IMG/VR virus record: IMGVR_UViG_3300031760_000010
Span: 1 to 64,000 of that record
DNA from: a virus
Taxonomy: Duplodnaviria > Caudoviricetes
DNA length: 64,000 nt
Reading direction: 5' to 3' (one strand)
Notes under the pieces: generated by a model
What the model saw: only the letters and a program-made list of their open reading frames with translations
Databases searched by the model: none
What the model was told of the DNA's origin: nothing
Shown here: in pieces, positions 41,773-58,175 of the stretch
Position numbering within the stretch: the stretch's first letter is position 1
Layout of the letters: the number at the start of each line of letters is the position of its first letter
Translations under genes and position numbers: made by a program

Positions 41773-44700
41773 TTATCCAGCCGCCGATTTTTTACTTATA
41801 AAACATGCTAAAAAGCACTTTGAGTTAACTTCGTAGAGGGTCTTCAATAATAAAGCTTTGTTATAGTTAGTTGATGAAACCATCTTTGCGATGTTACTTT
41901 TTACCCCTGGAGTAATCACAAAAGCTCTATTAATTAATTTAGAAACTAAGCCAACATAATTTTTAGATAAATAAATTTGGCGGATATCTTCTATAAGCTT
42001 TTCAAAATCTTCCGCCAACATCATAAATAAATCTTCATCCGTTGGATCATCAGCCACTCCATGAGATAACAGTTTCAAAGAATATTTTTCAATCATCTTT
42101 TCAACTTTTCTTGACACCCTATGATGTTCCGTAAATTCATGTTTAATAAAAAAGTCCTGAATTGGAAGAGTGGAAGTAGTTGGATTATACGACTTTGGCT
42201 TTAATCTATATACATAATTCATTGGACATTTTAGTTGCTTATTCATTTTCTTCTTATCAAATTGCGGTCTTATCAATCCCCAAAAAGAAGGGTACCCACG
42301 TTGGTCAATTAGCATTGATTGCTTAATCAATTTTATTTCTTCCATTATATCAATGTCATATTTTCTTTTAGCATTGTCAATAGCACATTGAGCAAGAACA
42401 CTTAAAATACAAACATTATCATATAATTTCTGATCATCATAATTGTATGTATAAGACAATGCTATCTGTGCCAAGTTGCTGGATTCACCTATTGCCCGCT
42501 GGCTGGCCGCAAGGTTATTATCAATTCGCGCAAAATCTGCTAAAGTATTATTATAATGGTTAGCATCTTTGGGTATATTATTTACTATAGTAGGATATTC
42601 CCGATAAAATCTCCGGGCACTATCCACTACAGACGGTTGATTAGTAACGTATAGCGAATCTGAATCTTGATCTGCCTATTTGTTTCGTCCCAGGCTCTTT
42701 ATCCTGGGCGGCTCCGGGTTTCCCCGGAGTGTCGGACTATATCTTCACCTACGACTTTACGTTTAGGTGTTCGGCGCTCGTGGATGAATTATCGCTTTAC
42801 CCGCTCGTCATCTAGTCTCTAAGCTTTCCCATCTTTATTCGGTATTGGATGGGCTTAGTAATTGATTGGCTTATGTGTGTGATAATAATTAATTAGCCAT
42901 TTCGAAATAATAATTGTGATATAATTTCTGCTTTTTTGCCGCTCTTGATATGCAAGAAATCATACTTGATATTTTAATAGATAGTTTGCATTGCTCTTTA
43001 ATCCATGCGCAAGCATCCATTATCGTATCTGTGGTTAGTATATAATTTTTGTTTTGATCATATATATGAACTCGTTTGGCATTGGGATTTTCTTTTCCGG
43101 TTTGATGAGATAGGCGGTTTTTTGTTTTCGCTAACCACTGTTGATACTTTTCATCCGACATTCGTTCTTTTGGGGAAACCCCAAACATCGCGTTATTAGC
43201 ACCCGATGAAGTAATGCTGTATCGCTGTTTTAATTCGGCTACTTCTTCAGGCGTCTTTAACTCCCAATAATTGATTCCATAGGCAGGATTCTTTTCCCCT
43301 TTCATGGCCTCAGAATGTTGAATACACCATTCTTTGCTATGCACCATCCCCACACTACCATCTCCTCCAAAAGTATGGTTGGTTAAATGCCCTGGTTCAT
43401 TCTGACGATTATTATAACCAATAATATCAATCCCATAGCCTTTATTAAAAACATAATCCATAACAGTTTCATGTTCTAGTCGGTATGCTTCTTCTTCAGA
43501 TAAATTATCATAAAGAATATTTACACGCATTCCCACTTTATTAACAATTCTATCATGATGTTCGTTCCGTCTAGTATTGTAAGCTCGTTTCTTTCGTCCT
43601 TTTCCCACATAAAAACAAGTATCATTATCTAATCTAATATGCTCATATACACAATATCCTTGATCTTCTATATATTACACCTCCTTTTTAATTTAACTAT
43701 TATCACACACACTTAGCGTTCCAATTTTCACCGAATATTTTTTACGCATATTTCTATACGCTGGCCCAGTATGTTAAGCCGTTATTCCGATCCTGTGCAT
43801 CCGTTCCAATCATATTTAATGCTATAATCAATTTCCCAAATGTGAAATACCTCTTAAACCGTTCATCATAATGATTATGTAAATAATCCAGATTATTTCT
43901 ACTATTGAAAGGGTTCCTGAATCCAGCAAGATATTCACCATCTTCAAATCGTTCCGTATAACATTGAATTGCACCGTCTTCAATCATCAACGTATCATCT
44001 TTATGATAATCATCCCCGGCTGAAGCCAACAACATAGCATACGGAGATCCAACAATTACAAGATTGTCTGCTTGTTGAATAAGTTTACCTGTCTTTACAT
44101 TTTTTACATACGTACGAATTATTTCTTTTTTTCTTTCTCTAAAATAATCACAACGTATGAATTCCGGGTTATGCTCAACTAATGCGACAAGTACTTCATA
44201 ATCATTTGCAAAATTAGTATTTCTTCTCAAGTAATCTACAAATACAGCATCATTCCGCTTTAATTGCTGTATATAATCCAGAGTCTCTTGGCATATATTC
44301 TCCATTAGGTCTATATCTAATGCATTAACCATCTGATAGCTCATACGCTGTACCTCACCCAATTTACTAGGATGAGCTGTCTTCACTATACCAAACTGGC
44401 AGCCATTTTTTCGTACCCATTCAGACCAATATTCAAAATCAACATGAAACTTAAGCCACTTAAGTGCGTTTTCAGTGGTAATCAATTTTACATTCCTTGC
44501 TAATATTTTATGACCCCACATGTCTTCAACTTCAGCAGTTTCATATTGATCACCAAAATAATCTTGATAGAAGAGTTGTATATTGCTTCGAAAGGCTGCC
44601 ATCTTACAGAAATGATGTCGTAAGAGAATATAACCCTCCCCCCATTCCGGGAAAATGCTCTCATCAATTAATGCCTGTCCATCAAATAATGTATTCTTTA

Positions 44701-50221: not shown

Positions 50222-50819
50222 GTTTAAAAAAAGCCAAGTGAGAATTGGTAAAAATTGAGGTGGAGGGTATAGCAAAAATTTATGTCACAATTTTATTGTA
50301 GATGGAATAATGGCTGATGGGGGTTGATATAATCGTTGATAAAATAATAATGGGTGGTTGGGCTGATAAAAGATTGATGGGATTATAGCATGGATGAGGA
50401 GATGTGTCAAGGATGGTGGGGGATGGAGTGGGAGATGGAGAGATGGGAAGATAAGTGTTTATACTTAACTGTTTTATGATTTTAATATTTTTCGATTTAA
50501 TGGCCGATGAATAATTTTTAGAGCTGTATTAACAAGGTTACTATGAAAAAGAAAAATAAATTAAAGAAATATGAGATAAATATGAGATTGAAAAAATGAG
50601 TCAGTGTAAAAATGGACCCGCTATTGGGAAAATTGAAAAAATTTGTCGAATTTTGGTTCAAACACCCCCTGATTTCCTCAAAAAAACTGTAATTTTTCGC
50701 AAAAAAGTTTGGTTTTATGGTAGTATTGAATCGGAGGAACTATGTAAACCGCTTTTCGAAAACACTTTTCAAAAACACTTTATTAAAAGCGCCGATTGTA
50801 TCGGCAAAAGGAGGCTTAT

Positions 50820-51926
50820 ATGCGTACACCTAACACACTATCCGAACAACTCAATTCTTTTTTCGGTATTTCAGAAAATAATTATCCGATACCGCAAAAT
50901 TCAATCGAACGCTATCAAAAAACAGTTGAACTATCTAATCTGTTTAACGAATTGAACGAAAGTACCGCCGAAAATAATGACGATATTTTTTCGCCGTATA
51001 TTTCAGAAAAATCGTTATTAAAAGCGTTTTTTGACCGTCTAAGCGACGCCGAATATCGTGTAAAAATGGATGAATACGACGAAAGTCTAAAAACCGCCAA
51101 GTATCATTTTACACCATTCATACCTGCGTCAGAATTTACCGATATAGGCGAGTATATTGCCCAAAACAATTTGCATATCATTTTAACTAAAGTTGTCTTA
51201 AAAGGACTTTTGAGATATTCAACTAGACGAAAAGCCCATATTGCAAATACGGCGAAAAAAGCGCCGTCTTTCCGTAATGATTGGGCGATAGAACGAATAA
51301 TCACTAGTGGTTACAACGATCAAATTTTTGACGATATGACACAAAATGTAGCGTTGTGTATTTACGAAACTTTGATTCCAAATGGTATGATTAGTTTTGT
51401 ACCATTCGAGAATGATTTATGCTTATTTGATATTCATTTTGACATAGACCAAAAAGCGTATATCAAATTATGGAATGTTGTACAAAATACATTTACTCAA
51501 TGCCATGGTCACTCATATAGCGTGAAACATGCGTCAATTGAATCATTATCGGAAATAGGTGTACAATTTCAGACCGCCGAAAATGACATTGAAACGCGAC
51601 TTGCAAATATAAGATATATTGATAGTTTTCACGCAAATATGTGCATAATGAAAATATTCATGAAAGATAAAATGTATCATGAATTGACCGCTATCATTGA
51701 GGGAATATTAAAAGGATATAATCTTGAAACAATCAATAAAGCAACGAATATTCGTTGCGACTATGTTATCTCAAAAGCGCGTTTTTTCCATTGTTTCGCG
51801 CTTTTAGTACAAAAAGGACACACACAAAACTATATCTGTAAAACTATGAATATATCTGAAAAAACTTATAATAGGTATATAGCAAAATTGCCTGCCGACT
51901 TTGGGAAAATGGAATTTGCAATCTAA
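50820..51926 (+). CDS. Divergent sigma-70/ECF-like factor
   Basis: Region-2-like 'FDDMTQNVALCIYE', 'SIESL' linker and C-terminal region-4-like HTH 'GHTQNYICKTMNISEKTYNRY'. ATG 50820 after AAGGAGG. Confidence 0.5.
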   Translation: MRTPNTLSEQLNSFFGISENNYPIPQNSIERYQKTVELSNLFNELNESTAENNDDIFSPYISEKSLLKAFFDRLSDAEYRVKMDEYDESLKTAKYHFTPFIPASEFTDIGEYIAQNNLHIILTKVVLKGLLRYSTRRKAHIANTAKKAPSFRNDWAIERIITSGYNDQIFDDMTQNVALCIYETLIPNGMISFVPFENDLCLFDIHFDIDQKAYIKLWNVVQNTFTQCHGHSYSVKHASIESLSEIGVQFQTAENDIETRLANIRYIDSFHANMCIMKIFMKDKMYHELTAIIEGILKGYNLETINKATNIRCDYVISKARFFHCFALLVQKGHTQNYICKTMNISEKTYNRYIAKLPADFGKMEFAI

Positions 51927-51940
51927 TTAAACTATATCGA

Positions 51941-51971
51941 ATACCGCCGACTTCGGCGGTATTTTTTTTTT
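51941..51971 (+). terminator. Intrinsic terminator after the sigma-like gene
   Basis: ATACCGCCGA-CT-TCGGCGGTAT hairpin followed by T10. Confidence 0.88.
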
Positions 51972-52190
51972 GAAAAAAATTGGTTTTTTCTAGTCTTGAT
52001 TGATAGTTATAGTGTAAGGATTGATTGAGAATGACATAGAAATATGTCATTAGAAAAAACCAAAGATAATTCTATGTTTTTTCAAACATGGAATTATTTT
52101 TCAAATTTTTTTGAAAAAAATTGGTTTTTTCTAGTCTTGATTGATAGTTATAGTGTAAGGATTGATTGAGAATGACATAGAAATATGTCA
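51965..52190 (+). repeat. Perfect 85-bp direct repeat (51965-52049 and 52106-52190)
   Basis: Identical copies 141 nt apart, each ending in a TGACATA-GAAA-TATGTCA hairpin. Confidence 0.95.
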
Positions 52191-52617
52191 ATCATTCATT
52201 CACTTGCAAGTGCGGTTAGTTAGAGTCGCAACCGCTTTTCCGAATGACTTAAAATGGACTTTGTGAATGAACGGTTGACATTGGGAAGTGTCAAATCCTC
52301 ATCAATCTGCGCACACCGCATGGTTAGAGCGAGTCTCGGCGGACAGGGGCGAAGCTCAGACGAATCTAGCCAGACTTTGGATGACCGTCTTAAAATGTCA
52401 CCCCGCTTGTTACCGCAGACGTTAAGGCGGTAACCGCCAAACCCGGCAGGCTGTAGAAATGTTCCGGGTTGCTTTTCGGTGGATCGTTGACCCTGAGAGG
52501 AGTCTCTCAGGAACCGATGAACGTCTTCTTAGTCTTGCACCCTTGCAAATTCTAGGGCATAGTTCTAGGACTTGCAAGGATGCAAGACTGCATCCTAAAA
52601 ATAATATTTTTAGGAGG
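52158..52617 (+). ncRNA. Candidate large structured RNA / 5' leader (~460 nt)
   Basis: No credible ORF. At least ten stems and a 7-bp pseudoknot visible by eye (see findings). Confidence 0.6.
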
Positions 52618-52624
52618 TCATATT

Positions 52625-53584
52625 ATGACGTACAACAACATGAAGAAGGCTGAGCTTGTGAACCTGTGCAAAGAGCGGAATCTTCCCAGTAATGGCAAGG
52701 TTGCCACGCTGATTGAGCGCTTGGAGACTGCAGACCGTAAGGCTGCTGAAGCTGCCAACGCCGGGATTGGCGTTGGAGCGAACTCCAAGAAGTCCTATGC
52801 CGTGAACGCGATGCGTCCGGCAATCGTGGCGGCAAATGAGGCGAATAATCGCCGCGCCATCACTAAGGACGACGCCGCAGAAGCGGGCGTAGACGAGGAA
52901 CGCTGGCAGGAATGGAAAAAGTGGTGTGCAGATCTCCACGAGATCGTTTCCACCTACGTGGAGGCAAAACGCTCCAGATCTGCATCTTCTGCATCTACTG
53001 AGATGCGCCAGACGTACCGCCAGAAGATCTACCCGGCATGGAGAACCATGCTGAAGGTAGGGGAGGAAAACATTTTTTCGCCGAAGATGTACCTGCGAGA
53101 GGATGACGTAGAGTCCCTGATCGGATTCTGCGAAGACTTCGTGGGGACTGCAATGGGAACTGAGCAGGCCAACGCAACCGAAGGGAAGTTCCGCAAGTTG
53201 GTGGAGACCCTGATCGGTTGCCGCATTAAGGGATGTGAGACGCTTCCTGCAAAGGATCGCGATCTGATCATCCTGTACGAGAGCGCTCTGCGCTCCAAAG
53301 AGAAGGCTGAGAAGGCACTGAACGGAGACGGAAAGAATATCGTGGGTATCATCCGCGAACTGCAGGCTGCTGAAGTGCAGACTGAGAAATTCGTAACGTC
53401 TCTGCGGGAACTGGGACTGACCGAAGAGCGCATCGCCGAGGTGACGGCGCCGTTCTACGTGAAGGTAAAGGATCTGAAGGAAGCTAAGAAGCGTTCGGAA
53501 AAGGCTCTGAAGAAGGCCGAAGAGACGATCGCCGCGAAGAAAAATGCGGCGCAGGAGATCTACGATCGCATCAAGAGCCGCTAA
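52625..53584 (+). CDS. SAP/HeH-domain protein with C-terminal coiled coil
   Basis: 'YNNMKKAELVNLCKERNLPSNGKVATLIERLE' matches the SAP domain consensus. ATG 52625 after AGGAGG. Confidence 0.75.
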   Translation: MTYNNMKKAELVNLCKERNLPSNGKVATLIERLETADRKAAEAANAGIGVGANSKKSYAVNAMRPAIVAANEANNRRAITKDDAAEAGVDEERWQEWKKWCADLHEIVSTYVEAKRSRSASSASTEMRQTYRQKIYPAWRTMLKVGEENIFSPKMYLREDDVESLIGFCEDFVGTAMGTEQANATEGKFRKLVETLIGCRIKGCETLPAKDRDLIILYESALRSKEKAEKALNGDGKNIVGIIRELQAAEVQTEKFVTSLRELGLTEERIAEVTAPFYVKVKDLKEAKKRSEKALKKAEETIAAKKNAAQEIYDRIKSR

Positions 53585-53593
53585 ATTAAAACC

Positions 53594-53617
53594 GGGGAGG
53601 TGAAATACCTCCCCTTT
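53594..53617 (+). terminator. Hairpin / weak terminator after the SAP gene
   Basis: GGGGAGGT-GAAAT-ACCTCCCC followed by TTTAT. Confidence 0.6.
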
Positions 53618-53619
53618 AT

Positions 53620-53672
53620 GGACTCATGTGCAAGCCTCCCCGTGGCGAGTCTGGATTCGAACCGATTGCACA
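53620..53672 (+). ncRNA. Minimal HDV-like self-cleaving ribozyme #1
   Basis: P1 GGACUC/GAGUCU with G1-U wobble, P2 UGUGCAA/UUGCACA, P3 GCC/GGC, L3 UCCCCGU, P1.1 GG-CC, vestigial P4, J4/2 CCGA. Confidence 0.8.
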
Positions 53673-53719
53673 AGAAGGGAACCTTATGGTATAATGCTCT
53701 GAGGTAAAGGAGGGTTATT

Positions 53720-53872
53720 ATGCACACAGTATCTGTTTTCTATGACGGAGAGTGGTTGACGTATGAAAACTGCAGCCCGCTCACCACACTTTGCATGATT
53801 AACGACGCTTTAGCGCAGGGGCTGCGTGTAAAGCGTGACGGCAAAGAGATCGTAGAATCTTCTTACACTTGA
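53720..53872 (+). CDS. Small hypothetical protein (50 aa) between the two ribozymes
   Basis: Not in the ORF track. MHTVSVFYDGEWLTYENC...ESSYT* with RBS AAGGAGG and an upstream TGGTATAAT extended -10. Confidence 0.7.
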   Translation: MHTVSVFYDGEWLTYENCSPLTTLCMINDALAQGLRVKRDGKEIVESSYT

Positions 53873-53884
53873 AACGACCAATGT

Positions 53885-53950
53885 GTCCCCAAAAGGGAAG
53901 CGTCCACGTCGCGGGGGATGGGCAACGGGAATTATCCCGGCTGATTTCCT
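53885..53950 (+). ncRNA. HDV-like self-cleaving ribozyme #2
   Basis: P1 GUCCCC/GGGGAU with G1-U, P2 AGGGAA/UUUCCU, P3 GCG/CGC, L3 UCCACGU, P1.1 GG, J1.1/4 GCAA, P4 CGGGA/UCCCG, J4/2 GCUGA (putative catalytic C53941). Confidence 0.85.
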
Positions 53951-53958
53951 AGAAGGAG

Positions 53959-54387
53959 GTGTGTCATATAGGCGAGAAAGGAAAAATACTATCCCTTTCC
54001 AATGAGGATCTTTTAGAGACGCTCCAGAAGAACAACCCGGAGTTACTCAAAAGTGCTTTATCCAAAATTGAGGAGGGCCTCCGTGAAGAATCGGAGGGGA
54101 CTTGTTTCGTGCCCGCCAAGGCAAAGGAATTTGAAAACCTATGCGTAGAGCTTAGGGAAATCGTTTCCGCCTTGGAGGGCGAAGTCATCGCCATTACTCC
54201 TATTGGGAGAAAATGTTTACGCCATTATATAGACGTATGCATCCCGGATGAGGCAGTAATGGATGCCGAAACGTTCCAGCGTTTTTTGGAATGTCTCAGG
54301 CATTTCAATTATTGCCATTGGAGTATTGAGGATGGCGATGACTTAATTACTCTGGGATTGTCCTTTAGTGGGATTTACCAGAAGTAG
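53959..54387 (+). CDS. Hypothetical protein
   Basis: About 140 aa. RBS position suggests an ATA start at 53968. Confidence 0.6.
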   Translation: MCHIGEKGKILSLSNEDLLETLQKNNPELLKSALSKIEEGLREESEGTCFVPAKAKEFENLCVELREIVSALEGEVIAITPIGRKCLRHYIDVCIPDEAVMDAETFQRFLECLRHFNYCHWSIEDGDDLITLGLSFSGIYQK

Positions 54388-54491
54388 GGTACGGAAATCA
54401 TTTTATTCCAGACTAGAACACAGGAGCTACGGAAACGAATTCCGACTCCTGTGTTTTAGTATGCAATAAAATGCAAAATAAGGAGGAACCA

Positions 54492-54734
54492 ATGGAAACT
54501 GAAACCAAGAAACTCACCGCAACCCGGCAAAAAGCTATTGCGACCGCAATAGCTTTATGCTATCCTGTTTCTGTGGTCTCCAAATTAACGGAGGCAACAA
54601 CGGAAACGGAAATCAATCGCATTATGACGACAGCCCGCCATGACGCGATCAAGGCAGACGAATTCCGGACACGTTCCCGGATCGTCTGCAACTTCAAGCC
54701 CCATTCTCGTGGGGTTGTGGTATTTGCAAGATAA
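54492..54734 (+). CDS. Hypothetical protein
   Basis: 80 aa, RBS AAGGAGG. Confidence 0.6.
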   Translation: METETKKLTATRQKAIATAIALCYPVSVVSKLTEATTETEINRIMTTARHDAIKADEFRTRSRIVCNFKPHSRGVVVFAR

Positions 54735-54772
54735 CGGAAACTAATGCACAAATTAAAATTAGGAGGGAAACT

Positions 54773-55381
54773 ATGTGCTACAATGGAAATTTTAACGTTT
54801 TATTCAACTCTGAGCAGTTCTGGGCAGAGTCCGAAATCTTCTGGGATCACGCAGATGACGGAGACCTTCTGGAGTGGCTTGCGCCGCGCCGAGAGAAGGA
54901 AAACGAGATGGACGCAATGGAAACACCTGCAAAGGTGATGTTCCGTGGTAACCGAAACAGCCAGTACCGCTATCGCGTGATGAAGCGCGAGAAGGCGAAA
55001 TACGGCAAGACAAAAGCAGATCGCCGTCAGGGACGGAAGGATTATCGCGACCTGTGCCGGGAGATGCACGAGTTCCGTGTATACAATGCCGGGGACAAAA
55101 AATCCCGGAAGGCAAAGGAGCAGTTCGCCTCCGCCCTGGGTGACGAATGGGACGTCACCCGGGGACAGGCAAACAACATTGCCGCAACGGAAGTTGTGGC
55201 CGAAGATTTTGTAGAGTCCCGGAAGGCAGAGCTGAAGGCAGTACAGGAAGAGATCCGTAAGGTAAACCTGAAGTGGTCCGATCTGCTGGGCCAGATGATG
55301 GCTCTGGAAGACGAACTCGCTGAACTCGCTCCCGGTTGGAAAGAGTGGGAAAGCTACAAAGCAAAGGAGGAACGGAGATGA
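54773..55381 (+). CDS. Hypothetical protein
   Basis: 202 aa, RBS AGGAGG, coiled-coil C-terminus. Confidence 0.65.
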   Translation: MCYNGNFNVLFNSEQFWAESEIFWDHADDGDLLEWLAPRREKENEMDAMETPAKVMFRGNRNSQYRYRVMKREKAKYGKTKADRRQGRKDYRDLCREMHEFRVYNAGDKKSRKAKEQFASALGDEWDVTRGQANNIAATEVVAEDFVESRKAELKAVQEEIRKVNLKWSDLLGQMMALEDELAELAPGWKEWESYKAKEERR

Positions 55382-55797
55382 AAAAACTCATCATCAGACT
55401 GGCTCTGATCGCCAGCCTTGCGTCTGCAACGGAAGCTACCGGGATCAGTCCCTATAGCTTCTACAAGAAGCTGGTCAAGAAACAGAAAATCGGTGTGGTA
55501 AGGGAATACTATACCGATAAATTGACAGGAGATATTCTTCGTAATCGCGGTGATGACATCATCGTGGAACGGATCATCGGCAAGGTAATTGACAACAAGG
55601 GCAATGGAAAAGTCCTTGGTGTTGAGGATTATGACTATATTTCCTACAACGGAGTCAATGGAATCTGCAAAGGAGATATAGTCATGACGGTGTGTATCTA
55701 CGCACCGAACAGTGACGGCGAAGATGATATAATTGAGCGGTTTGATTATATCATCGACCGAAAGGGAAAGAAGGTGAAAAACGCGAAGAATAAGTAA
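55378..55797 (+). CDS. Hypothetical secreted or membrane-anchored protein
   Basis: Signal-peptide-like N-terminus MKKLIIRLALIASLASA. Confidence 0.6.
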   Translation: MKKLIIRLALIASLASATEATGISPYSFYKKLVKKQKIGVVREYYTDKLTGDILRNRGDDIIVERIIGKVIDNKGNGKVLGVEDYDYISYNGVNGICKGDIVMTVCIYAPNSDGEDDIIERFDYIIDRKGKKVKNAKNK

Positions 55798-55812
55798 TAC
55801 ATAAATTAAAAC

Positions 55813-55906
55813 AAATCCTGCTCAGTACTGGTGTACCGCTAGTGAAACGAATGACGGAATAGCTTGCGTCTGGGTTCAATTCTCAGATGAGTGGTTCTGC
55901 GGATTT
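55813..55906 (+). ncRNA. tRNA-like element
   Basis: T-arm (T)CTGGG-TTCAATT-CTCAG(A), acceptor-like stem CTGCTCA/TGAGTGG, outer stem AAATCC/GGATTT. No canonical anticodon arm. Confidence 0.5.
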
Positions 55907-55932
55907 ATCGCAAAGCAAAGGAGGAATTATCC

Positions 55933-56142
55933 ATGAGCAGCAAGGAAAAGGAACTGAAAGAACTGGAGTGCTTCGAACAGTACTTCGACCCAAATCGCCA
56001 ACCTTTGGTTGACGAGTATTTCTGCAAGGTAACCCGAAGGGAGACGATCCTGCGGAAGATCAAGAACGCGATTCTTGATTTCATCTGCAATCCGTTTGTG
56101 CTGATGATGGCCGCTTTTGTGGGATGCATCATCTACGGCTAA
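55933..56142 (+). CDS. Small membrane protein
   Basis: 69 aa with a C-terminal hydrophobic helix, RBS AAGGAGG. Confidence 0.6.
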   Translation: MSSKEKELKELECFEQYFDPNRQPLVDEYFCKVTRRETILRKIKNAILDFICNPFVLMMAAFVGCIIYG

Positions 56143-56210
56143 TTACAACTTAATATTGGTAATATACAAAATAATAAACACATAGCCAACAAGGCAAAGG
56201 AGGAACAATT

Positions 56211-58175
56211 ATGTTCAACGTAGGCGACATTGTAACCGGTATTGATTCTAAGCAGTATTGCATTACGAACGATGCAGCGATCTGCAGAGTTATGGCGGTA
56301 GGGATCGCTGGAAATCCAGACAAAATCAAGGTAAAAGTTCTGGAACGAACCGATGGAGAGTATGAGGAGAGTGTCGGGGACATTTATCCGGTAGACGCCC
56401 GGCACTTCAAGTTGGTTGAGGGGTATCAGGTAGTAAGCGAGATCCCGGAACCTGAATATGATCTGACGCCAGTGTCGGATGAGATCATTGACCGAATCGC
56501 AAGTGAAATGGCAGTATTTTTTGATAAGTACGGTCATAGGCACTCCATGGAGGGTATCAGGGAAATCCTTCGGGTGTATCTGGAAAACAACATGCCGCTG
56601 ATCGGCATCCTGCGTCAGCATCCGAATTGGGATGAAGAAAAGCTGGCAATCGTGTTCTCCAAGGGATACGTCCGCAGCGTCCAGTATCAGCAGGTAGTGG
56701 AGTTTACTGACTGGTTTCTTGCGAAGAAAGTGGAGCAGATCAACGCAAACGAAGTCAAATACTGCGGTAAGTCTTACCGTTGGTGGATGAGCCAGTATCG
56801 CCAGTTAGACCGAGCTGTAGATTTCATAAGCAATCTTGAGAGTGGCTTTTCTGCTTCTATTTCGTTCAACGGAATGGAAATCGATCCCAGACAAGAAAAA
56901 AGATTTGCCAGAAAAGCAATCGAAAGTCTGGATAATTTCCCGACTGTTACGGGAAAATATGTAAACTATACTTACTTTGCGGATTACGACAAGGTAAAAT
57001 CTTTCCGCCAGGTACTTCTGAATTATTTCGGTCAGGAAGATCCGAGTACCATTTCTCCGGTAGCCACAAAGGAACTGACGGATAAAATTAACGAGATTTA
57101 TCCCGGTATGGCTGTAGAGGGACAGAAGATCTCCCGGATCGTAGGGAAAATCGGCAAGCTCCTTGGGTTCGATCAGATTAAGGAAAAGTGGAACGGTCGT
57201 GACTACGGTTGGAACAGACAGTTCGCCATGTTCGCAGATGCTATTAATCCACTGGAATATACAAAGTATACTCTCATTTCCTTAAATCCTATGGATTTCC
57301 TGACCGCCAGTTTTGGTCACGGTTGGGCGTCCTGCCAGACTCCTGATTACCAGAACTTAAGAAATTGTTCACATACTTACGAAGGCATGTACATGAGCGG
57401 TACTCTTAGCTACATGCTGGATGGGGTATCCATGGTATATTACACGGTAGATGCCGATTACAAGGGAGATGAGTTCTGGAAACAGGATAAATCACAGCGG
57501 TGCATGTTCCACTACGGAAACAACGTACTGGTTCAGGGCCGGGTTTATCCTGATGGCAGAGATGGTGGAGACGGAAGTCTTGCTTCTCAGTTCAGGGCGG
57601 TCATGCAGGAAGTAATTACTACCTGTACAGGGAAACCGAATCTGTGGACTCTAAAGAAGGGAAGTGGTTCTATCAGAGAATTTACAGAATCTCATGGTAC
57701 CCATTACAGAGATTACCAGCAGTATAATGATTGCACGATCTCTCTGCTCAAGGGATGTGAGCACAAGATAATCCATATTGGTCACAATCCGATCTGCCCG
57801 GAGTGTGGAAGGGAACACGAAATCTGTGGTCAGTTAACCTGTGATCGCTGTGGTCGTACAAAATACTGTAACCATTGCGGATGCGAGGTTGATCCTGATT
57901 TTGCAATCGAAATTGACGGCAACGTATTCTGCGACTCTGAATGTGCTGAAGCGTCTGGTTATGTGAATACTACCGATGACGGATGGCATGAAAGGGAAAG
58001 TTGCTTGTATGATGACCTGGAAGATGAATGGTACTGGGATTACGAAAGCAGTTACGTGGTAACGGAAGATGGTCATAGTTATATTGACGAAGACAACGCA
58101 AGGGAGGCTGGTTATGCCCAGAACGCAGATGGCGAATGGGTTGATGCTGCCAGTCTGAGCGAGGAGGCGGAATAA
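56211..58175 (+). CDS. Large hypothetical protein with Cys-rich C-terminal zinc-finger repeats
   Basis: 654 aa. Central 'SLNPMDFLTASFGHGWASC' and 'QGRVYP' motifs, multiple CxxC, acidic tail. Confidence 0.7.
   Translation: MFNVGDIVTGIDSKQYCITNDAAICRVMAVGIAGNPDKIKVKVLERTDGEYEESVGDIYPVDARHFKLVEGYQVVSEIPEPEYDLTPVSDEIIDRIASEMAVFFDKYGHRHSMEGIREILRVYLENNMPLIGILRQHPNWDEEKLAIVFSKGYVRSVQYQQVVEFTDWFLAKKVEQINANEVKYCGKSYRWWMSQYRQLDRAVDFISNLESGFSASISFNGMEIDPRQEKRFARKAIESLDNFPTVTGKYVNYTYFADYDKVKSFRQVLLNYFGQEDPSTISPVATKELTDKINEIYPGMAVEGQKISRIVGKIGKLLGFDQIKEKWNGRDYGWNRQFAMFADAINPLEYTKYTLISLNPMDFLTASFGHGWASCQTPDYQNLRNCSHTYEGMYMSGTLSYMLDGVSMVYYTVDADYKGDEFWKQDKSQRCMFHYGNNVLVQGRVYPDGRDGGDGSLASQFRAVMQEVITTCTGKPNLWTLKKGSGSIREFTESHGTHYRDYQQYNDCTISLLKGCEHKIIHIGHNPICPECGREHEICGQLTCDRCGRTKYCNHCGCEVDPDFAIEIDGNVFCDSECAEASGYVNTTDDGWHERESCLYDDLEDEWYWDYESSYVVTEDGHSYIDEDNAREAGYAQNADGEWVDAASLSEEAE

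Follow-up and report, generated by a model that had tools for sequence, protein, structure and literature searches.

A structured leader precedes the SAP-domain gene

The window analysed here is a stretch of 64,000 nucleotides (nt) from the start of an IMG/VR virus record of 122.6 kb (IMGVR_UViG_3300031760_000010, Caudoviricetes). In its right part, a gene for a 368-residue protein is followed by an intrinsic terminator, by two copies of an 85-bp direct repeat and by a stretch of about 460 nt (52158-52617, + strand) that leads into the gene for a 319-residue protein with a SAP domain, and it is this leader that we describe. The structured leader RNA is real, conserved and absent from Rfam and, by analogy with known phage systems, it most likely controls the processing and translation of the SAP-domain gene. 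The initial annotation of the window had noted at this place a large structured RNA, which it took to be either a novel large non-coding RNA (ncRNA) or a complex regulatory leader; the stems that it listed, a pair of complementary 7-mers, the long hairpin, the hairpin at the ribosome-binding site (RBS) and a repeated 9-mer are all present as it described them (Table 1).

The leader region is non-coding, as no open reading frame covers it under genetic code 11, with TAG read as Q, or under code 4. A cmscan of the whole window against Rfam 15 at gathering scores returned only two tRNAs and a group I intron, all outside the leader, and a scan of 51800-52800 with E up to 10 returned only sub-threshold chance matches, the best of them to mir-19 on the long hairpin (26 bits compared with a threshold of 50). 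The comparison took in ROOL (RF03087), GOLLD (RF01998), OLE, raiA and HEARO and 4227 other families, so that the initial annotation, which could not match the RNA to a known class, is borne out. As regards a possible riboswitch, the core of the leader is conserved and its junction invariant, and an RBS platform lies downstream; no known aptamer class in Rfam was matched, and there is no metabolic gene context.

The self-complementarity of the 460-nt stretch exceeds chance. Its minimum free energy (MFE) is -168.4 kcal/mol, with a z-score of -6.4 relative to dinucleotide shuffles, and it contains 31, 13 and 5 inverted 7-, 8- and 9-mers compared with shuffle means of 6.4, 1.8 and 0.3, counts as high as these being found in 0 of 300 dinucleotide shuffles. 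The thermodynamic signal comes from three modules only: the 5' rod (52160-52309; MFE -46.8 kcal/mol, z -4.0, with agreement between the MFE and centroid structures), the long hairpin (52531-52589; -37.6 kcal/mol, z -8.5), and the two small hairpins that cover the Shine-Dalgarno (SD) sequence and the start codon, AUG (z -4.6). The case for the central part and the core is a comparative one.

Helices of the core change sequence and keep their pairs

Leader sequence is recognisable in four lineages of relatives recovered through the SAP protein, namely L004 (with its 91% relative L016), L006, L009 and, in part, L028. The SAP proteins of L004, L006 and L009 are 60-62% identical to that of the window, and that of L028 is 56% identical over a partial protein. 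The blocks shared among these relatives are ACAGGGGC in a hairpin loop of the central element, the P_a loop AGGCUG(A)..GAAU, and the outer arms of the long helix, UCUUGYA…URCAAGA. The window, L004 and L016 agree at every position of a 25-nt junction block (52468-52492), despite an identity of only 62% between the SAP proteins; the block occurs in a single copy and has no complement elsewhere in the phage genome, where a search for trans targets of two conserved motifs likewise found none.

Between the conserved blocks, the helices differ in sequence yet still pair. In an unedited MAFFT alignment (A4), 85.5% of the cells in the three core helices are paired and 13 of the 19 pairs show double changes, a level reached by 0 of 500 shuffles, with slid controls at 30–50%. 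RNAalifold finds P_a and P_c unaided. Both sides have changed in 6 of the 7 pairs of P_a, which also forms in L009 and L028 with other sequences, and double changes are found in 7 of the 8 pairs of P_c; P_b is replaced by GGGUU/AACCC in L006, by GGUAG/CUACC in L009 and by GUGUU/AACAC in L028. Altogether, five helices in the shared core keep pairing through two-sided changes. Covariation among homologues, which the initial annotation had proposed as a check, speaks for a conserved RNA structure, the sequences being few (five).

Outside the core, conservation takes a looser form. The central loop motif ACAGGGGC is common to the window, L004, L016 and L009, and both stems around it differ in sequence and still pair, in 24 of 24 and 19 of 20 positions within sequences compared with fractions of 0.53 and 0.34 across sequences; the central element (52321-52372) is not recognisable in L006. 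At the position of the hairpin at 52409-52434, L004 and L016 carry a hairpin of different sequence (AGUAU/AUACU). The rod of L004 has the same architecture, closed by AGAUUGAAA/UUUCAAUCU around another interior sequence, and that of L006 is longer, so that the 5' rod is kept in these two lineages as an architecture and not as a sequence. Hand-aligned helices that include L009, L028 and L010 give pairing of 0.93–1.0 within sequences and 0.34–0.86 across sequences.

The changes also indicate which molecule is under selection. G·U pairs outnumber A·C pairs by 15 to 2, an excess that points to the + strand RNA, and the strand assignment relies on this bias, as the minus strand of the leader folds equally well (z -7.1). 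The folding of the minus strand is one of several observations that would fit a signal at the level of DNA, that is, operators, promoters or origin elements at a strand switch, with the RNA folds incidental. The 85-bp duplication is perfect, a 7-4-7 palindrome (TGACATAGAAATATGTCA) lies beside a -10-like box in both copies and is followed by a second TGACA/TGTCA pair, and the leader region is about 2 kb from a switch in GC skew and from a G-rich repeat tract. This explanation could apply to the first ~130 nt only, however, and the downstream helices change their sequence while keeping their pairs, with the G·U excess just described, which only selection on the + strand RNA explains. We therefore consider a DNA-level signal very unlikely as the explanation of the leader.

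Two further elements of the initial annotation dissolve under comparison with chance. The 7-mers AGACGTT and AACGTCT had been taken for a 7-bp pseudoknot; about six such 7-nt complements are expected by chance in the leader, and the pairing is not kept in the relatives, L004 having another 7-nt complement at a comparable 3' position and its close relative L016 lacking it. The repetition of the 9-mer CTTAAAATG is not significant, being matched in 33 of 300 shuffles. A CU-rich tract was also considered as a pairing partner of the MKK codons in the SAP gene and rejected, as it pairs no better than shuffled tracts do.

Table 1. Features of the leader and its surroundings, in window coordinates. 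P_a, P_b and P_c are helices of the core.
Feature	Position	Strand	Description
First rightward gene	50820-51926	+	368 aa; directly upstream of leader region
Intrinsic terminator of 368-aa gene	51939-51974 (stem 51939-51964)	+	11-bp G+C-rich stem, then T-run; terminator scan
85-bp direct repeat, copy 1	51965-52049	+	A/T-rich DNA, -10-like TATAGT (52008-13), first ~30 nt of leader including palindrome TGACATAGAAATATGTCA
Hairpins downstream of repeat copy 1	52030-52112	+	9-bp hairpin, then 18-bp A/U-rich hairpin and U-run
85-bp direct repeat, copy 2	52106-52190	+	-10-like TATAGT (52149-54)
5' rod domain	52160-52307	+	~35 bp in four stacked segments; GCGGUU/AACCGC cap
Closing stem of 5' rod	52160-70 with 52298-307	+	GATTGATTGAG with CTCATCAATC; GAUUGAU.GAG / CUC.AUCAAUC
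7-4-7 palindrome	52173-90	+	TGACATAGAAATATGTCA; adjoins -10-like box in both repeat copies
Rod stem	52195-203 with 52263-71	+	TTCATTCAC with GTGAATGAA
Rod cap hairpin	52212-17 with 52230-35	+	GCGGTT with AACCGC
Repeated 9-mer	52248 and 52389	+	CTTAAAATG
Rod stem	52275-82 with 52287-94	+	TTGACATT with AGTGTCAA
Central element	52321-52372	+	Helix UGGUUAGA/UCUAGCCA around hairpin GUCUCGGC/GCUCAGAC; loop carries conserved ACAGGGGCGAAGC (52343-55)
Stem of central element	52321-28 with 52365-72	+	TGGTTAGA with TCTAGCCA
Hairpin	52409-52434	+	GUUACCGC-AGACGUUAAG-GCGGUAAC
Stem of this hairpin	52409-16 with 52427-34	+	GTTACCGC with GCGGTAAC
Complementary 7-mers	52417-23 and 52520-26	+	AGACGTT and AACGTCT
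P_a	52440-52470	+	7 bp, AACCCGG (52440-46)/CCGGGUU (52464-70); 17-nt loop AGGCUG..GAAAU, sequence-conserved
Junction strand	52469-52492	+	UUGCUUUUCGGUGGAUCGUUGACC; most of longest conserved block (52468-52492)
P_b	52476-52517	+	UCGGU/ACCGA enclosing conserved internal loop and hairpin P_c
P_c	52492-52511	+	CCUGAGAG/CUCUCAGG; DNA stem CCTGAGAG (52492-99) with CTCTCAGG (52504-11)
Long hairpin	52531-52589	+	27 bp in blocks of 10, 8 and 9; two 1x1 mismatches; 3-nt loop
Possible alternative pairing	52578-52595	+	GGAUGC (3' arm of long hairpin) with GCAUCC (overlaps anti-SD strand)
Anti-SD hairpin	52593-52615	+	UCCUAAAAAU/AUUUUUAGGA over SD AGGAGG (52612-17)
Start-codon hairpin	to 52629	+	GUCAU-AUU-AUGAC over AUG at 52625
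SAP-domain gene	52625-53584	+	319 aa; first cistron after leader; Pfam SAP at residues 2-38, E 2.2e-8

The long helix and the predicted masking of the ribosome-binding site

RNase III sites require about 20 bp or more of near-continuous double-stranded RNA, and the long hairpin offers 27 bp interrupted by two 1x1 mismatches, which makes it a candidate RNase III-type processing site at which cleavage may be expected from the predicted fold. It is followed directly by GCAUCCUAAAAA and not by a U-tract, and is therefore not a terminator; the terminator scan found no terminator-like site at all between 52113 and 52625.

The two arms of this helix are not always adjacent. In L004, L016, L006, L009 and L028 they lie about 270 to 390 nt apart, around a gene of 77–104 codons with its own SD sequence, and each arm also has a local competitor hairpin. 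The outer 16 bp of the helix are nonetheless paired at 109 of 112 positions in seven sequences, with double changes in 10 columns, and the long helix thus appears to tie the core to the ribosome-binding region of the SAP gene in the relatives. L018 and L027 show the same arm-gene-arm layout with unrelated sequence. The genes in the loop (L004:3602-3916, L006:3670-3924, L009:3624-3914, L028:208-441) are absent from the window and encode small acidic proteins of 77–104 residues, those of L004 and L006 being alike by eye; none of the products in the relatives had a PHROG match.

The proposal of the initial annotation that the RBS of the SAP gene is masked by a hairpin fares well in the predicted ensemble. 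In the full leader and in most 5'-shortened forms alike, the SD sequence is unpaired with a probability of 0.15 and the AUG with one of 0.09–0.10. The anti-SD hairpin is present in all six lineages examined (the window, L004, L006, L009, L028 and L010), with 44 of 44 pairs formed, and a second hairpin pairs the AUG in the window, L004 and L006. We conclude that the SD sequence and start codon of the SAP gene are predicted to be masked, and that the anti-SD pairing is conserved. An alternative pairing between the 3' arm of the long helix and the anti-SD strand is longer in relatives (10 bp in L004, 9 bp in L006 and 7 bp in L010), where its sequence covaries. The corresponding pairing in the window has 6 bp and raises the accessibility of the SD sequence to 0.44 at most, only for a 5' end at 52578; a switch that opens the SD sequence in this way would be weak in the window.

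These observations bear on whether the RNA acts in cis or in trans. It is possible that the ~370-nt part upstream of the long hairpin is released as a stable, stand-alone ncRNA that acts in trans, with co-expression as its only link to the SAP gene; such an RNA could be made as infection begins and serve as a decoy or in anti-defence, or it could form a particle with the SAP-family protein and be its RNA subunit. The RNA is large, some of its unpaired nucleotides are under strong purifying selection, including the 25-nt block identical to L004, tandem strong promoter-like repeats lie upstream, the 27-bp helix could serve as a release site, and the rest of the operon is partitioned by ribozymes and hairpins. 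Against this, there is neither a terminator nor a ribozyme at the 3' end, the 3' arm pairs with sequence adjoining the RBS of the SAP gene in an arrangement preserved across the inserted gene, which indicates coupling in cis, no complementary target is found elsewhere in the phage genome, and the sequence diverges beyond recognition between clades. We consider a free RNA unlikely. Of the two identities that the initial annotation had offered, it is the regulatory leader that is favoured over the free ncRNA, because there is no terminator before the SAP gene and because the helix joining the 3' end to the RBS covaries across the inserted gene.

The SAP-family protein and the leaders of its distant relatives

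Outside the SAP domain, the product of the SAP gene is all-helical. For its AF2 model (pLDDT 80), no match in the PDB reached E ≤ 0.001, the protein atlas yielded nothing informative, and nine homologues were found in a collection of 5.8 billion clusters. A profile search found 484 clusters at 50% identity, including 103 with E ≤ 1e-30; most of the 484 lack the SAP domain or have Rho_N or HeH in its place. The core domain (residues ~55-316), for which Pfam has no model, defines a large uncatalogued family of phage proteins with interchangeable N-terminal modules (SAP, Rho_N, HeH or none).

DNA was recovered for about ten lineages of this family, in which the homologues are 35–62% identical to the window protein (60–62% within its clade). 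In every lineage that had upstream DNA, about 240–880 nt of mostly G+C-richer non-coding sequence lie ahead of the gene, the small loop gene of some lineages being the only coding part. In relatives, the leader follows the terminator of a weakly related upstream gene and then A/T-rich tracts with TATAGT or TATATA boxes; such boxes, often in two or three copies, precede the leaders of L004, L006, L010, L014 and L020.

Searches beyond these lineages returned little. A blastn search of the leader against the phage collection gave no match, and scans of IMG/VR with the SAP protein, the SAP alignment and two DNA patterns of the conserved core gave nothing or only chance coding matches. In GTDB genomes, there were at least 120 matches to the core pattern, and a model of the leader (R1) recognised none of 80 loci among those listed. 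Model R1 detects its seed sequences only, with L028 at E 0.3 and L009 at E 3.6, and does not find the leaders of L010, L014, L017, L018, L020 or L021; no G+C-containing k-mer is common to all leader types.

One of the distant leaders resembles ribosomal RNA. The segment L014:750-880, in the leader of the SAP homologue P0008, matches positions 46-180 of the Rfam large-subunit (LSU) model LSU_rRNA_bacteria with 56.8 bits (E 3e-14; z 7.2 relative to shuffles). Its 131 nt comprise helices near the 5' end of domain I, two distal helices being degraded; L015 is an identical contig, possibly from the same sample, and the segment could be either captured host rRNA or a true mimic module. In the window, CGGUGGAU..hairpin..CGAUGAA.CGU had suggested a similar idea, namely that the leader imitates the 5' end of 23S rRNA and so provides a ribosomal protein or an assembly factor with a decoy or an autoregulatory site. 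The window, however, has no LSU match at E up to 10, and its best local alignment to nt 1-600 of E. coli 23S rRNA (rrlH) is matched by 57 of 200 shuffles (z 0.7). Moreover, CGAUGAACGU is not kept in L004, L006 or L009, L017, a relative of L014, is without the segment, and L021 has no Rfam match. The mimic reading is not supported for the window leader, and we regard it as highly improbable.

A working model of the leader

Taken together, these results lead us to propose that the element is a multi-domain, cis-acting 5' leader of about 460 nt at the head of the rightward early operon of the phage, comparable to the leader of the lambda N gene, with an RNase III-type hairpin and a masked RBS; we give this proposal about an even chance of being right. 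Four parts would be distinguished: a 150-nt rod, a central domain with the conserved ACAGGGGC loop, a core of about 95 nt (P_a, the invariant junction, P_b and P_c), and the 27-bp hairpin with the SD and AUG hairpins. Transcription would begin at duplicated strong promoters just past the terminator of the upstream gene, the start being placed there from sequence features. The SAP cistron would be translationally masked by default, and a double-strand-specific enzyme of the RNase III type would cut the long helix and so detach the structured leader. The conserved core would then serve as the platform on which a trans-acting factor binds to set the translation of SAP or decide what becomes of the message. 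The leading candidate for this factor is the SAP-family protein itself, possibly binding the core, which would result in autogenous control as in the lambda N leader.

Apart from the covariation, the arrangement of terminators is in favour of this model, as the scan places one before the leader and none after it. That the message is cut into pieces is plausible in view of at least one HDV-like ribozyme and of long intercistronic hairpins in the operon. The ribozyme (Rfam HDV-F-prausnitzii) lies downstream of the SAP gene at 53885-53951 (36.2 bits, E 7e-5), and matches to the same family occur at L010:5437-5510, L020:3490-3557 and L017:2084-2157 (34–44 bits overall). Further long hairpins lie at 54399-473 and 60934-89, and by eye no U-tract terminators follow them.

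Several observations weigh against the proposed leader. The fold z-scores are not specific, since the SAP coding region has a z of -5.2 and the upstream gene one of -3.4, and a sliding fold scan gives negative values over much of the early operon. Neither the central part (52311-52440, z -0.7) nor the core (52436-52530, z -1.2) is more stable than its shuffles, so that the large structured RNA of the initial annotation stands on the inverted k-mers, the overall MFE and the covariation of the core and finds no thermodynamic counterpart in these two parts. Leaders of this type number five sequences only, from three or four independent lineages, which makes the covariation statistics thin, and the hand-aligned helices were picked by eye and anchored on the conserved blocks, their control being biased and secondary. 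The leaders of more distant SAP-family genes have no detectable motif in common with that of the window, which argues against a protein-RNA recognition site conserved throughout the family. Nearly all the processed forms that were modelled for the window keep the RBS hairpins closed, so that no clear on-state is predicted. The palindromes of the 5' rod, beside the promoter, could instead be DNA operators, and transcription of the leader is itself something that we infer from promoter-like sequence.

The position of the leader at the start of a long operon, directly behind promoters, would also suit a processive antitermination or anti-Rho leader of the nut or rrn kind, from which RNA polymerase would acquire host Nus factors or a phage factor and so read through a long, highly structured and partly untranslated operon. 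In such a reading, P_a followed by UGCUUUUCGG..GGUGGAU would resemble boxB-boxA-boxC, with a hairpin and then a conserved single-stranded U-rich block, and in the lambda N leader nutL is likewise followed by a structured RNase III region and by N autoregulation (PMC5725501). Compared with the boxA consensus GYUCUUUAANA, however, GCUUUUCGGUG, which follows P_a in the window, has U at position 4 and another 3' half; the consensus is of the E. coli type and may not be that of the host. In E. coli, a C4T/T6C double mutation of boxA abolished Nus-factor association, as reported in PMC5725501. L009, L028 and the remaining leader types do not have the U-rich block, and there are no U-tract terminators to override after the intercistronic hairpins at 52531-89, 54399-473 and 60934-89 (the last two judged by eye). 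An antitermination leader is in our view quite improbable.

A more ambitious version of the proposal can also be formulated. The core and the ACAGGGGC loop could form a tertiary fold that binds a SAP-family protein or a small effector, and so found a new class of large phage riboregulators or ribonucleoproteins; the RNA, once excised at the long helix, would also persist as an abundant early trans RNA, and the 23S-like module of L014 would exemplify the swapping of host-RNA mimics. We think this rather unlikely.

Genomic setting

The phage is an uncultured one of the cattle gut: DNA nearly identical to that of the window is present in two bovine-gut DNA metagenome runs, and the listing of runs with such sequence contained none of RNA. 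Genes lie on the minus strand up to ~50.1 kb and rightward from 50.8 kb, and the GC skew switches at the same place. The switch region includes a non-coding tract (50230-50450) with GATGG/GGTGG/GGGAG-type repeats and a GC skew of up to +0.78; very A/T-rich DNA borders it, and it is possibly an origin or a region of iterons. The product of the first rightward gene, the 368-residue protein, has no match in Pfam, PHROGs or the protein atlas, and its earlier description as sigma-like finds no support there. The terminator of this gene separates transcription of the leader from the upstream gene.

The two copies of the 85-bp repeat are 100% identical, with no third copy within the window. Judging from their sequence, they probably act as duplicated strong promoters, which would put the 5' end of the leader near 52160. 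Copy 1 is followed by two hairpins, the fold of 52018-52112 having an energy of -26.7 kcal/mol (z -5.7); the A/U-rich one, with its U-run, resembles a terminator and is not called by the consensus terminator scan, because its stem has no G-C pairs. Copy 1 may therefore yield a separate RNA of about 95 nt, of which the first ~30 nt would be common with the leader. Between copy 1 and the A/U-rich hairpin stands TAGAAAAAACCAA, the reverse complement of a 13-mer found in both copies.

The G+C content climbs from about 0.33 in the upstream gene to 0.46–0.55 in the leader and SAP gene, and stays high for several kb (window 52200-58000). A step from 0.31–0.39 in the upstream gene to 0.48–0.55 in the SAP gene is found in the window, L004, L006, L009 and L010; it is weaker in L020 (0.38 to 0.45), and the SAP gene of L014, with no upstream gene for comparison, has 0.38. 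Elsewhere in the window, the group I intron match lies at 42712-42963 on the minus strand with 50.8 bits, just at the Rfam gathering score, and the tRNA genes (Gly-tcc and Thr-tgt) at 39.3 and 41.2 kb.

Comparison with known systems

The closest parallel is the leader of the N gene behind the lambda pL promoter. There, nutL lies about 200 nt upstream of N, and the binding of N and Nus factors represses N translation (Wilson et al. 1997, 2002, in PMC5725501). Both leaders belong to the first early gene, for a nucleic-acid-binding regulator, and have the same order of parts: a promoter, a protein-binding RNA element, a long region of the RNase III type, and a repressed RBS 200–450 nt downstream. 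The window leader differs in having no match in sequence or model, in its departure from the boxA consensus, in being about twice as long with a covarying multi-helix core, and in that the SAP-family protein is unrelated to N; its binding and cleavage would follow by analogy.

RNase III processing hairpins separate the early genes of T7/T3 and SP82, the T7 sites being isolated hairpins of about 60 nt. The long hairpin of the window is likewise near-perfect, lacks a U-tract and stands directly before an RBS in a polycistronic early message, and there are several such hairpins in the operon. Unlike the T7 sites, it makes up the 3' module of a leader of 460 nt, and the relatives have an entire gene between its arms. 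In this respect it resembles the processing stems of rRNA operons, as a complete functional unit is looped out by a helix of about 25 bp whose arms are separated by ~270 to 390 nt, except that the relatives enclose a small protein gene and not an rRNA, and that the insert has been lost from, or was never present in, the window.

Few RNAs of bacteria and phages have a conserved structure of more than about 350 nt, and the discovery of each has usually brought new biology to light. With ROOL, GOLLD, OLE, raiA and HEARO the leader has in common its size class (> 350 nt), an occurrence in phages of gut or rumen bacteria and the lack of a known function. It differs from them in having no cmscan match, in being coupled to a downstream RBS, and in being conserved in sequence over only about 95 nt in a handful of contigs. 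On the sequences at hand, the leader would constitute a new RNA family within a small clade.

A survey of csRNAs upstream of phage genes in IMG/VR reported 10,006 candidates (PMC10690425). Like these, and like the operator of T4 gene 32 and other autogenous operators, the leader is a structured element upstream of a gene for a nucleic-acid-binding protein, and control of the RBS by the product is plausible; the window leader is much larger and has several domains. It is tied to the first gene of an early operon, a gene from a large uncharacterised family of phage proteins, and it is unusual for an mRNA to have a helix with an entire gene in its loop. If the leader is only a stabilising or processing element, it would represent an ordinary though elaborate case of T7- or lambda-type processing of an early message; if it controls or partners the SAP protein, it would give entry to the first minutes of infection by these phages.

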